A DNA stretch of 62,003 nucleotides, counting the filler, from Basidiobolus ranarum (Eukaryota), in assembly GCA_040143965.1 (NCBI GenBank). It is 2 parts of 2 records of this genome, joined end to end, with 100 filler letters (N's around TTAATTAATTAA, not from the genome) between each part and the next. Parts side by side here need not be neighbours in the genome. Positions count along the whole stretch, not along the records: positions 1 to 30,958 come from JASJQH010006969.1; 1 more part is not named here. The stretch is one strand, 5' to 3'. Numbering within the stretch: position 1 is the stretch's first letter; every line of letters starts with the position of its first letter. Of the stretch, positions 17,461-23,461 are shown one piece after another. The notes beneath the pieces are model-generated. The model worked only from the letters and a program-made list of their open reading frames with translations, was not told where the DNA came from and did no database searches. The position numbers and the translations under genes are program-made.

Positions 17461-17896
17461 GGAGTCAACTTGAGTCATCTGCTTCAGATCAACTCTGGTT
17501 GGGGCCAAAAAAGAAAAACCTGCATCATACTCGTATTCCAAATAGGCCTATTTAGGAAGGTAAAATCGATTTTTATCCATCATGTGTGTCTATAGATTCA
17601 ACAAATTGGATATATCCGGCCAACCATTCTCTATTTAGTCATCTTAACTCTCGCTTTCACCCCGATCCCTCACCCTCGTGGTCATACGGAGTCAATTGCT
17701 GTTTACTGTTTTCTGTGAGTGGCTAGCGAATTTTCCTTATCACCTTATTATGCTATCTCACATCAATAGATGCTAGCTGTTGTACTTATATATGTATGAC
17801 ATTGGGTTATTCTAACTGCCGTAAGCAAAAGACCCAATCATGTTGAATTCCAATTGGTCATAGTTATAGAAGATGATTCAGTTTTCTATATATAAA
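17461..17896 (+). promoter_or_regulatory. CPA1 promoter with Gcn4/Cpc1 (AP-1) type sites and TATA box
   Basis: TGAGTCAT at 17471, GAGTCA at 17462 and ~17689, TTAGTCAT at ~17635, ATGATTCA at ~17873, TATATATAAA at 17887. Confidence 0.6.
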
Positions 17897-18013
17897 CCCA
17901 GCATTCAAGTGCCATGTAGATTGTCTTTCTCTGAAAACTTCTGATCTTACCAATTCCCTTTAGTCGCAAATTGCGACCGTAAAGAAACAAGCTACTCGAC
18001 CTCTAAGGTTTAT

Positions 18014-18180
18014 ATGTACTGTCACGCCCAGGAAAAAAACTCATCCGATTATATCTCCGACCAAAGTACGTATACATTTCATTTCTTTGTCTACATCCTA
18101 TGGGATGGTAAAGAGTAATTAACTAACAATACTATCGCTTCACCTTTATAGTTTGGAAAGCTCTCGCTCAGACCTGCTAA
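18014..18180 (+). CDS. Arginine attenuator peptide uORF (exons 18014-18065 and 18152-18180), MYCHAQEKNSSDYISDQIWKALAQTC
   Basis: Intron GTACGT..CTAAC..TAG. The spliced peptide matches the N. crassa arg-2 (DYLSDHLWRAL) and yeast CPA1 (DYISDHIWK) attenuators, with D12, Y13 and W19 in register. It ends 128 nt before the CPA1 ATG. Confidence 0.93.
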
Positions 18181-18308
18181 ATTCAATCTAAACTCAAAGA
18201 ACACTGATAATTAACAAGATTTTCCTTCCGTCTAATTTCAACTTTTCAACGTCTAAGAAACTTATCTCTCAACCAAGCAATATAACAATTATTCATTCTA
18301 TCAAAAAA

Positions 18309-19637
18309 ATGTCATTCCTCATTTTTTCCAAGTCTTCTTCCGCTCTCTTTGGTGGACCCAAGATTGCCAGAAACCTATTTGCCATCCGCAAGCTCGCAAC
18401 CGTCTCCGACTCTCCCGTCCATTCTTCTCCATTTGTTCCTCCTGTCACTTCTTCAACTTCATCTCTTGCCGCTTTGAAGTTGAAGTCTGGTCAGATCTTT
18501 AAGGGTACATCATTTGGCGCCTCCAAATCAGCTATTGGGGAAGCAGTTTTTACTACCTCATTAGTTGGTTATCCAGAATCCATGACTGACCCATCATACC
18601 GTGGCCAACTTCTTGTATTTACACAGCCATTGATCGGAAATTACGGTGTTCCCGGTATGGCCAAAGATAAATACGGTCTTCTTAAATACTTTGAATCCGA
18701 GGCAATCCACTGCCGAGGTATTATAGTAAGTGACTATGCTACCAAGTATTCGCACTGGAATGCCGTGGAGTCTCTTGGTGAATGGTGTACTCGCTATAAT
18801 ATTCCAGCTATTAGTGGTGTTGATACCCGTGCCATAGTCCACGTTCTTCGTGACCAAGGTTCTACTTTGGGTCAACTGGCCATTGGGTCTCAGGATATCG
18901 AAGCGCCTGTAACTCAATTCGAGGATCCAAATCAGAGTAATCTCGTTGCGGAAGTTTCCACCAAGGTTCCCATCGAGTTTAATCCAGAGGGCAATCTCAA
19001 GATTGCAGTAGTCGATTGTGGTATTAAGCAAAATATTATCCGTTGTCTGGTTTCTCGTGGTGCACATGTTACCCTTTTGCCTTGGGATTATGATTATAAC
19101 AAGGAGGCCCATAAGTATGATGGTCTATTCATCTCCAATGGCCCCGGGTCACCCACCGCTCTTGGTGCAACTGTAAATCATCTTCGTAATGCCATCAACA
19201 CCTTCAACAAGCCTATCTTTGGTATTTGCATGGGCAATCTGGTTCTGGGACTTGCTGCAGGATTGGATTCATACAAGCTACGATTTGGAAATCGTGGACA
19301 CAACCAGCCCGCTGTGAACGTGGTTAATGGCCAATGTGTGATCACTTCTCAGAATCATGGCTATGCTCTTAAGGATGATAACTTGCCTTTAGGTTGGGAA
19401 AAATATTTCATCAACGCCAATGATGGCTCTAATGAAGGTATCCGTCATTTGACCAAGCCAATTCGTTCAGTACAATTCCATCCTGAAGCTAAGGGTGGAC
19501 CACAAGATACTGAGTACTTGTTCAATGAATTCCTCGATGAGGTTCGTGCTGACAAAATTAAGAGACATGGAGCTGATTACATTGTCGAAGAAACAATCCC
19601 TACCCAAAGAGAAAGAATCGCAGTGGCAGTCGCTTAA
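18309..19637 (+). CDS. CPA1: Arginine-specific carbamoyl-phosphate synthase small (glutaminase) subunit
   Basis: Mitochondrial presequence, GEAVFTTSLVGYPESMTDPSY, SNGPG, GICMG catalytic Cys, SQNHGY, QFHPE. Confidence 0.97.
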   Translation: MSFLIFSKSSSALFGGPKIARNLFAIRKLATVSDSPVHSSPFVPPVTSSTSSLAALKLKSGQIFKGTSFGASKSAIGEAVFTTSLVGYPESMTDPSYRGQLLVFTQPLIGNYGVPGMAKDKYGLLKYFESEAIHCRGIIVSDYATKYSHWNAVESLGEWCTRYNIPAISGVDTRAIVHVLRDQGSTLGQLAIGSQDIEAPVTQFEDPNQSNLVAEVSTKVPIEFNPEGNLKIAVVDCGIKQNIIRCLVSRGAHVTLLPWDYDYNKEAHKYDGLFISNGPGSPTALGATVNHLRNAINTFNKPIFGICMGNLVLGLAAGLDSYKLRFGNRGHNQPAVNVVNGQCVITSQNHGYALKDDNLPLGWEKYFINANDGSNEGIRHLTKPIRSVQFHPEAKGGPQDTEYLFNEFLDEVRADKIKRHGADYIVEETIPTQRERIAVAVA

Positions 19638-20093
19638 AAGTGATGGAACCCTTTATTTGTCTTCAGAAAATGACTAATATTATCTGCTTGCTATTTACTC
19701 AACCATCTCATAATAATTTGTATATTTGTTAAAACAATTTATATTATCCAAGGAAATCTTATCTCAAAAGCCAAGAAACATCATCAATAAATATCGTTGA
19801 AAGTTGAAACAGTTCTCCGTTGATAAGTTGCATTTAGCTTGGTGACAAAATCATAAATTCAGTTGTACTTACCTTCCAAACGTCACCTTGACACCATTCA
19901 TTCTTATCTAGATAGACACGCACACCCACAGAATACCCAATAAACACACGTTTAAATAAATAGTCAGAGTCGGTTCAATATATTCATTTATTTTTATATA
20001 TATATATTTGGTTGGGGTGACCTCTTAAATTTAATTATCGATAGAGTAAATATGTAGCGATGTTAAAACATCGAAGATGAGAATTCCACTTGA

Positions 20094-23001
20094 TTATAAT
20101 TCATCATGATCTGGAGATTCTGTTTCCACTACAGGTTCGGAGGATTCCGTATTTGTTGGAGACTCGGAAGCCGATGGGGCATCGGTATTAATTGAGGGAG
20201 TGGTATACGAAGCAGATTCTTCAGTGGAGTTAGATGCAGCAGTTGAAGTAGTAGTGGCAGTGGCAGTGGTGGTAGTAGCAGACTTTTGAGCTTGCTTCTT
20301 GGCGATTTCTACTTTGTGAACAAGTCCAATTAAATCCAAATGGAACTTTTGATTTCTAGCCTCTAGATCCTTTGAAAGCACTACAGGGGTTTCATAAAGT
20401 GGAACCTTGGATTGGATTTCGATTTGTTCATCTAACCATTTCTTAGTTTCCGAACTCTTTTCCAAGACTTCGTTCAGTAATTTCTCAAGTACTGGAGATT
20501 CGATCTCGGTGAAATTGGCACGAGTACCTTCGGCATAATCGATAGCGTATTGTAGCGAATCTTGGATGGTTTGGAATAAATCTCCACGTTTACTAAATTC
20601 CTTTTGTCTATCATGAATTGGCAGATAAAGGATCTCAAGCTCTTGGTATTTCTTTTGGAAGTTTTCGGTTGTACCATCTTCCTCGTTTTCCCAGAGCCAC
20701 TCAGAAGCTTCACTAACGGTACTTTGGAGATTATTACGTTGCTCTTCAGTGCTGACCTTCACGACCAATTCCTTCTCAAGGAAATCGGGAACTGAGTAGA
20801 TAAATGACTCGAGTTTGTTCCTGGATTCTTCGCGTTCTCTTCTAATAGCATCTTCACCATCCATCACCTTGATTCTTGCGATAGCTTCTCTCTTGGAGTC
20901 AATATCCATGGGTTTAATGCTCAGGTGTTCAATTTTCATATCGAGTTTGATAGTTTCAGTTTTAAGGCCATCAGTAGCGCCATCAGTAGCGGTGCTGTTG
21001 AATTGAGTTCCATTATCTTTGGAAGCAATACCATCAGAATCTACGGTTTTGGTATCCGCTTCAGATTTCTCGTCAGACTCTTGGGCTGCTTCTCCTTTGA
21101 TGAATGAAAGCATACGATCTTTTAAAGATGCCTTCTTTTGCTCCTCTGACAAATTGGTGCTAGTTTCTACGGTGGCGATAGCATCGGTGATAGTCAAAAT
21201 ACCGGACTTGTTTAATCTCAAAGAGACTTGTACCTTTGGCTTACTGACCGAAGTTTCTTCAAGAGCTTTGAGACCCTTGGTTAATCCTCCAACATGAACT
21301 TTGACCATCTCTTTAGGCCCAAAGCCTTGTTCGTAATTTTCCTTCAATTTACCATATTGTACTTCAAATTGGAAATCGCTATTACGATTGAAGTTCATGA
21401 TCTTCTTTACGTTAAGGGGGGAGAATTCCTTGAATAAAGTGGTTCGGATTTGTTTGGTGGCTTGTTTGCTATCTTTAGGCTCGGAAGAGTAAGTGACATC
21501 CACTGGGAAAGTGGTGATATCTTTTAGTTGGATATCTCTAACTTTAAATTGGCGACTCATTCCAGCTCCACGGAAAGCAGCTCCCAAAACAGCTGCCTCA
21601 TCACCATTTACATTTTTGGCGATTTTGTTATCACCAATATAATCCTTCAAGATGGATTGGATTTTAGGTATACGAACACTACCTCCAACAAGGACCAAGG
21701 AACTGATATCGGATTTAGAGAGACCAGCTTGAGTTAACACAGATGCGATGGGATTAGTGACACGATCAAAGAGATCCAATGAGATGGTTTCGAATTTAGA
21801 ACGAGCAACATGAGTACGGAAATCATGTTCTTCGAAAAGGTTTTCAACCGAAGCGATAGTCTCGGTATTAGCACTAAGGATTTGTTTTACACGAGCTGCT
21901 TCTTTCATCAATCTAGCCATGGCTTTACCAGAATCCTGAATATTATTCTTCACTTTAGAGCCCATCTTTTCGGTAAATTCATGAACCAAATGTTGTTGAA
22001 GTCTATAATCGAATTGATGTCCACCAAGGGTACGATCATAACCGACTGCCTTGACTTCAACTTGGGTAATGGATTTGTTATATTTTCCGACATCTTTAAC
22101 CGATACGGTTCTGAACTCCATAAGACTAGCAACTGTACTTCCAGCACCCATATCGTAAAAGATATGATATTGTGGTTCTTCGGTGAAGGATCTAGACATG
22201 GCATAATTAAGTGCGACTAAAGAAAATAGATGTGAATACAAGTACAAACTAAAATCAAAAGAATCAATGACATACCAGCACTCTCATCATTAATAATTTC
22301 CAAGACATTTAAACCGGCAATATCTGCTGCGTCTAATAATGCTTGTCTTTCAAAACTATTGAAAAATGGGGGGACCTATAAATTAAAAGATATTTAAATT
22401 CCATTGGAATTTTGGAAATTTTAAATTCATTCTGGTAAATACCGTGAGAATTGTATCCTTAATCTTCTCTTGTGCCGTATCTTCGGCAAGTTCTTTGGCA
22501 TGCTTCAGTTGCATACCAATCAATTCCTCTACTGAGTAAATGGTTCCATCCTCGTGCTTAAAGGCAACTGTTCCTCTAAGAGGATTCTTGACCATGGTGC
22601 TCATAAAAGTGTTACGGTAATCTTGGCATATTTCATCTTCGTACACACGACCAACTAGGTTCTTAAGAGCAGGGTAAGTAAGCTTGGGGAAACGTGTACC
22701 CTACATGAACCAAGTTAGTAAAAAAGTATAAAATGAAGGGGATAAAATAACAGTTTCAAAGTACCAAGTTAAGACCATCTACACCATAAATTCTTTCATT
22801 ATTTCTAATGGCAACGACGGATTGAACTTTTCTCTTAGAGTCTCTTCCAAGAACAACATCAATAGGTGTACCGGTTTTCACCAAACCAACTTTGAACCAT
22901 TCTGTTCCATAATCGATGGAGATGACAGTAGCGGTAATCAACTGAGTGAACACGACCAGTGCCAATAAGAAGGTTGTGAATGTGATACGTCTTGAACACA
23001 T
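20094..23001 (-). CDS. LHS1: ER Hsp70-family nucleotide exchange factor GRP170/HYOU1 (4 exons)
   Basis: Signal peptide, SIDYGTEWFKVGLVK, YDMGAGST, LVGGSVRIPKIQ, NGDEAAVLGA, C-terminal HDEL. Confidence 0.95.
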
Positions 23002-23461
23002 TTCCAATATCGCCAACTAGAAAATGAAGGAGAAATAGGTATGCTTTCCAATTCCTTGGCTTTTTGGAAGTATAGAAAACTCGGTTATGCAAAGAGTTTT
23101 TGTTAAATGAAAAGGGATTTTCTAGTTAATAAAGGTAATATATCTTCCCTACAATGTCATTGAGAAACAGTTCGCCTATTAATGCCTCAAGAATGGACCA
23201 GTCATAGATCGACAAATCACAGAATTTCCTAGAAATCCAAATGCCAGTAGTTAATTTGAAAATTGCCTTAACAGGAACCAATTGATTCTAGTAAATTCTT
23301 GCATGCAACTTCGAATGACTAACCATAATGTCAAATCATCTTGCAACACATCGATTTTTAAATCAAAAGTCGATGTGCTATTTCATCATCGACTTTCGTT
23401 GTGAACTAGAAATTTAAATCCTATTTCTTAATGGCTTTATTTGATCTGACAATACGATGCT

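Follow-up and report, generated by a model that had tools for sequence, protein, structure and literature searches.

The arginine attenuator peptide (AAP) of Neurospora crassa arg-2 is a 24-residue product (PDB 2xl1_A; Pfam PF08252, Leader_CPA1) of an upstream open reading frame (uORF) that precedes the small subunit of the arginine-pathway carbamoyl-phosphate synthetase (CPS), and its Saccharomyces cerevisiae counterpart, the CPA1 uORF, encodes 25 residues. The yeast uORF is not known to contain an intron, and Y13 was reportedly found to be important for the AAP in the work of Hood 2007 and Spevak 2010. Excerpts from the experimental literature state that arrest is abolished by D12N and that D12 contacts uL4 (PMC7038982), that D12 and W19 are important for the peptide (PMC3299997), and that the yeast CPA1 system, for which D13N is also described, has a poor uORF start context and leaky scanning (PMC7969011). 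Nonsense-mediated decay (NMD) is tied to the AAP uORF in a section of PMC11550727, and uORF-dependent NMD is described for yeast, Neurospora and Cryptococcus in a section of PMC7049704. AAP uORFs have been described from Ascomycota and Basidiomycota, and also from Coprinopsis (excerpt of PMC12230235).

The DNA analysed here, referred to as the window, is a stretch of 62,003 nucleotides, filler included, from Basidiobolus ranarum (GCA_040143965.1), made of contigs joined across an N run (88 N in all), with the uORF-CPA1 locus wholly within positions 1-30958. Upstream of a CPA1 gene we found a short, intron-split uORF that very probably (at a probability of roughly 0.88) serves as a working, cis-acting AAP of the usual kind, exerting feedback on CPA1 synthesis; conservation and homology argue strongly that ribosomes would stall on it when arginine is high. 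Two sources of comparison recur below: X1, the only sequencing run that a search returned (no run type, RNA or other, is recorded for it), derived from an organism about 97% alike (about 3% different), and a paralogous locus, L002, in the same genome. The features are listed in order.

17889-17896, plus strand: TATA-like box (TATATAAA), recognised from sequence, the likely promoter of the uORF-CPA1 transcript
17927-18013, plus strand: transcribed 5' leader, from the X1 piece 17927-18065, at least 87 nt
17962-17978, plus strand: inverted repeat or small hairpin of the leader; the paralog shares its arms but has another loop
17998-18010, plus strand: second small hairpin, predicted in both leaders and ending 4 nt upstream of the uORF start codon; here too the arms are shared and the loops differ
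18014-18065, plus strand: uORF exon 1, 17 codons and 1 nt of codon 18 (sequence, X1 contig, paralog)
18066-18151, plus strand: spliceosomal intron, 86 nt, phase 1 in codon 18 (X1 contig, paralog L002)
18152-18180, plus strand: uORF exon 2, the rest of I18, W19 to residue 26, and the TAA stop (sequence, X1 contig, paralog)
18181-18308, plus strand: ATG-free spacer of 128 nt from the uORF stop to the CPA1 start (132 nt in the paralog)
18309-19637, plus strand: CPA1/arg-2, intronless, a stand-alone CPS small subunit of 442 aa (PF00988 and PF00117 over cut-off)

Removal of 18066-18151 yields a uORF of 26 codons that runs from the ATG at 18014 to a TAA ending at 18180. The intron has a GTACGT donor at 18066, a branch-like CTAAC at 18123-18127 and a TAG acceptor ending at 18151, and it interrupts codon 18 behind its first base, separating the DYISDQ half of the peptide from the I-W-K half, such that exon 1 encodes D12, Y13, S15, D16 and Q17. 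Eighteen alternative donor/acceptor pairs were counted at the locus, and 17 of these were rejected on the grounds that they lose W19 and are absent from the X1 contig. The stretch 17927-18013 is free of ATGs and the uORF ATG is the only one in the spliced 296-nt leader; an ATG-TAG at 17914 was set aside, since it precedes the stretch covered by the contig and has no counterpart in the paralog. Position -3 is T for the uORF ATG, a weak context, and A for the CPA1 ATG at 18309, a strong one, a pattern repeated in both paralogs; of 14 long ORFs, 7 carry A at this position, vs 798 of 2401 for all ATGs, a thin background for the organism, given 14 ORFs. Such a poor uORF context would allow leaky scanning. 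If the intron were retained, the frame would stop at 34 codons and lack W19, and ATGs at 18100 and 18105 would be added to the leader; hypothetically, retention could switch the sensor off.

Transcript evidence came from the alignment of X1 to 17500-23400, which returned three records at 95-99% likeness. One of these, a contig of 1788 nt at a depth of 47.9, spans 17927-19773, covering 17927-18065 and 18152-19773 with a joint from 18065 to 18152 that is GT..AG, free of ambiguity and exactly the predicted junction; the uORF and the whole CPA1 frame lie on this single contig, and CPA1 is covered without a joint. In the minus-strand gene next to CPA1, X1 also lacks three segments of 64-67 nt, and two of them have the GT..AG form of introns; it has no cover beyond genes, and because of these two properties we consider that it behaves as an RNA assembly. 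At contig level, then, in a close relative, one transcript carries both the uORF and CPA1 with the intron removed. This RNA support is one assembled contig from one run of a relative about 3% different; start site, strand and splicing efficiency are beyond what contigs record, and the alignment as given covers the contig after its first 26 letters. The 5' piece has three differences from the window, of which the two that could be located, at 17978 and 18004, are both upstream of the uORF. The earlier note on this DNA had called the splice sites from the sequence, and its coordinates and 26-residue product proved exact; the junction 18065/18152 that it asked to see in RNA is present in the contig, the contig extends 87 nt or more 5' of the uORF start codon, where the note would have taken a transcription start downstream of 18014 as refuting, and the contrast that it drew between a weak uORF ATG and a strong CPA1 ATG holds at -3. 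The neighbouring gene (20043-23096, minus strand) is multi-exon and convergent with CPA1, is covered by X1 contigs with its introns removed, and by eye looks like an ER Hsp70-family chaperone of the Lhs1/Grp170 type.

Features further upstream are partly shared by the two paralogous loci. The TATATAA of the promoter is kept in L002, and X1 cover starts 38 nt past the first base of TATATAAA. A block of 13 bases (AATTGGTCATAGT) at 17852-17864, which lies about 25 nt 5' of the TATA box, recurs unchanged in L002 at about 1038-1050 and is a candidate transcription-factor site common to both CPA1 promoters, and TGAGTCA-like sites, which we take to be putative motifs of the Gcn4/CPC-1 type, occur upstream of the promoter at 17471-17479 and 17689-17694. 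The paralog counterparts of the leader hairpins are at 1157-1173 and about 1192-1204. Folding z scores for the first hairpin were -3.7 and -3.6 in 27-nt pieces chosen after inspection, and only -1.5 and -1.3, not significant, for the whole leader. Both located X1 differences fit the hairpins, with 17978 C>T restoring the pair found in the paralog and 18004 falling in a loop; no compensatory double change was found among window, paralog and X1, and the structures could instead be DNA inverted repeats. In the paralog leader, a canonical-looking branch site and CAG acceptor (L002, about 1188-1201) stand just 5' of the uORF ATG; the window copy is continuous in X1 at the matching position, and the paralog signals may be due to chance or possibly mark a 5' UTR intron specific to that copy.

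The gene downstream of the uORF is the CPA1/arg-2 type of Basidiobolus, and probably specific to the arginine pathway, because of its domains, catalytic triad, relatives, position in a tree and matches in its own genome. Its frame ends at a stop of its own, PF00988 and PF00117 are its only Pfam domains, and the triad residues C307, H391 and E393 are present. Its first 32 residues include 0 acidic, 5 basic and 6 S/T residues, which is presequence-like, as a mitochondrial presequence would be. Among the best 120 of 7067 matches, the nearest named proteins were a pair of small subunits from B. meristosporus (86% and 84%), followed by others at about 65-70%. A tree of 25 rows placed both B. meristosporus proteins in one clade with the window protein and its paralog (99/100). 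Four CPA1 matches were found in the B. ranarum genome: the window gene, the paralog L002 (87%), L003 (53%) and L004 (50%). L003 continues in an open frame of 951 aa, as would a fused pyrimidine-pathway enzyme, which it putatively is. Both CPA1 copies seem to have been retained from about the time of the split from B. meristosporus or earlier. An own-genome DNA search with 17950-18070 matched only itself and missed the known paralog, and is uninformative about further copies.

The likeness of the spliced product to known AAPs was assessed with a home-made profile built from three peptides of metagenome origin, none from Basidiobolus. These came from a scan in which 80 loci, mostly 40-55% identical, were kept among at least 594, with no Mucoromycota or Zoopagomycota locus among those kept; three (L009, L014 and L020) had a convincing AAP motif upstream, and three more with weak motif matches were dropped, their frames being broken by stops. 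L020 passes PF08252 (28.9 bits, cut-off 18.5) and matches PDB 2xl1_A, and it is included in the profile. When all possible small ATG-peptides of the window, spliced or unspliced, were ranked, the predicted splice form was first of 22,848 candidates at 34.7 bits; the runner-up, at 21.9 bits, was another splice form of the uORF locus, as were all the top matches. A profile made from the two H-bearing peptides alone still placed the same form first (23.8 vs 11.7), and a six-frame scan of the 62 kb gave a single occurrence of the motif DY[ILVM][SA]D. Standard searches were blind to the uORF. Pfam assigned no family to the unspliced frame or to exon 1 alone, a PDB search with exon 1 gave 0 matches, and a six-frame search of the genome with PF08252 gave 4 matches at E<=10, of which 0 were over cut-off and 0 at either CPA1. 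Six-frame family searches miss an element of this kind because the intron cuts the core of the peptide, and we read the PF08252 result as a limit of the method; the expectation that gene callers would overlook the uORF is borne out to the extent that exon 1 alone is invisible to Pfam and PDB searches.

Comparison of the two paralogs points to purifying selection at the peptide level, for this one pair. The L002 uORF also has 26 codons, T at -3 and an intron, of 80 nt, at the same position. Between the copies 14 codons are the same, 7 differ synonymously and 5 are changed (residues 3, 5, 23, 24 and 26); residues 6-22 are identical, and all 7 base changes within them are synonymous third-position changes. 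When 15 base differences were scattered at random over the whole uORF, five or fewer residue changes resulted in 308 of 200,000 trials, and residues 9-20, reportedly the minimal domain in Spevak 2010, were left intact in 82 of 200,000. This whole-uORF test replaced a simulation on codons 6-22 (25 and 1 of 200,000), a region that had been chosen post hoc. The other two frames of the uORF gave 10 changes of 25. For scale, the 440 CPA1 codons compared comprise 210 that are the same, 174 with silent changes and 56 that are changed. Identity to the paralog is 83% and 79% in the exons, 51% in the intron and 64-67% in the flanking leader; part of the DNA conservation is not specific to the peptide, because the flanking leader is itself conserved.

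Several other explanations of the locus can be weighed against a working AAP. Short peptides are easily built by choosing among splice sites, of which this locus offers 18 pairs, and the lack of a Pfam match in the unspliced frame is also what a chance look-alike spliced together from non-coding DNA would give, but the exact junction in the X1 contig refutes that explanation unless the contig is misassembled, and the paralog with the same intron position and peptide, together with the first rank among 22,848 candidates, leaves chance with next to no probability. It is very unlikely, too, that what matters here is not the peptide, as it would not be if the uORF gave sequence-independent dampening, as a generic uORF or NMD trigger, or if selection had kept an RNA or DNA element such as the leader hairpins. 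The two leader hairpins 5' of the ATG are retained in both paralogs and the flanking leader is 64-67% identical, which would suit such an element, but the finding that 7 of 7 base changes in codons 6-22 are synonymous indicates selection on amino acids and not on bases, and distant fungi with dissimilar DNA have AAPs that match the peptide.

We think it unlikely that the uORF, although an AAP by descent and translated, has been retuned by Q17 and its longer tail, so as to give a weaker or shifted arginine response or to sense another ligand, with the paralogs set differently. Q replaces H at position 17, 7 residues and not 5 follow W19, the paralogs differ at five residues, and both CPA1 copies have been retained, all of which would suit such a change. 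Against it, D12 and W19, which the excerpts cited above report as critical, are both kept, the position of conserved residues is reported in part of PMC11550727 not to affect function, and the paralog differences sit in parts that vary among all AAPs compared. Q17 also recurs in L009: it is found in 3 of 7 peptides, from two lineages (both Basidiobolus copies and L009), and H in the other four (N. crassa, S. cerevisiae, L014 and L020). The earlier note had described an unusual H17Q substitution; Q17 is real, and its presence in both Basidiobolus copies and L009 makes the word unusual an overstatement. The tail was correctly said to be two residues longer than in N. crassa (7 vs 5 after W), but it is the least conserved part of the AAP, with 6 residues after W in L009 and 5 in L014, L020 and S. 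cerevisiae, and the paralog departs from it at 3 of the last 4 positions. As predicted from DNA, introns interrupt the AAP frame in 3 of 3 AAP-bearing metagenome loci (codon 12 in L020, codon 16 in L014, between codons 17 and 18 in L009), suggesting that introns in this frame are not special. The L009 uORF (924-1135; 30 residues from its ATG, A at -3) has Q at the position equivalent to 17, followed by I-W-K, and its predicted splice form places a phase 0 intron of 119 nt immediately behind this codon, 1 nt 5' of the intron position in Basidiobolus, an offset for which an intron slide or an independent gain are both possible. L009 is from an apparently deep-branching metagenome eukaryote with 68% GC whose closest named relative is at most about 59% identical; its CPA1 is 54% identical to that of the window, and its CPS protein joins unnamed proteins, apart from the named fungi, in a tree whose midpoint root leaves the depth unproven. 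It is possible, if rather doubtful, that Q17 with an intron right after it is an old state outside Dikarya, H17 being a later change in Dikarya, and that the two Basidiobolus CPA1 copies are differently tuned sensors by virtue of their tails and hairpins. If true, this would provide a natural experiment on the residues that set the arginine threshold and the stall site.

For an AAP of the usual kind, the reading that we favour, control would begin with a single transcript carrying the uORF and CPA1, from which removal of the 86-nt intron joins the DYISDQ half to the I-W-K half. Judging from the start contexts and from yeast, most scanning 43S complexes would bypass the uORF ATG with its weak context and initiate at the strong CPA1 ATG, and by homology a ribosome that does translate the uORF would have the nascent peptide within its exit tunnel. 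When arginine is abundant, D12/Y13 together with W19 would engage the tunnel wall, peptidyl transfer would be inhibited, and the ribosome would stall at or just before the uORF stop. The stalled ribosome would block scanning to CPA1 and may trigger NMD, so that less arginine is made. With two residues more in the tail than N. crassa has, ribosomes may already arrest during the final rounds of elongation and not just at termination. Inhibition by the AAP reportedly extends over some four residues (Wei 2012), a span that would include residue 26. A section of PMC13183943 calls the stall site flexible.

Among the papers that the literature search listed, none described a Basidiobolus AAP uORF, although primary surveys and their supplements may well list related AAPs from early-diverging fungi. 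Because surveys of fungal AAPs exist, those of Hood 2007 and Spevak 2010 reportedly with zygomycetes included, a specialist would expect such a peptide, and the known mechanism is unchanged. What is added is an extension of a textbook nascent-peptide sensor to Basidiobolus, with RNA support at the level of the junction and a selection test between paralogs. Q17, the 7-residue tail and the two paralogous tails are also natural variants that could be used in stalling assays. Taken as a whole, the X1 junction, the paralog, homology, the profile and the identity of CPA1 support the proposal that an early-diverging fungus has an intron-split AAP uORF at CPA1.

The peptide stands close to both model AAPs. 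Over residues 8-21, the part of the N. crassa AAP covered in PDB 2xl1_A, 7 of 14 residues are identical and bear the same numbers (S10, D12, Y13, S15, D16, W19 and A21), confirming the earlier placement of D12, Y13 and W19 at their N. crassa positions and with the correct spacing; L14I, L18I and R20K are conservative, and residues 8, 9 and 11 differ. N. crassa has H17 and 24 residues, whereas the window peptide has Q17 and 26, the extra two following W19. The S. cerevisiae sequence was read by eye from a coding block of synthetic cDNA type in a supplement table of PMC8370653, and its core D13-K21 equals D12-K20 of the window at 8 of 9 positions, with H in place of Q as the single mismatch. Yeast has 5 residues after W, vs 7 here, and its CPA1 uORF has the weak start context and leaky scanning described in the excerpt of PMC7969011, to which the T at -3 in Basidiobolus would correspond.
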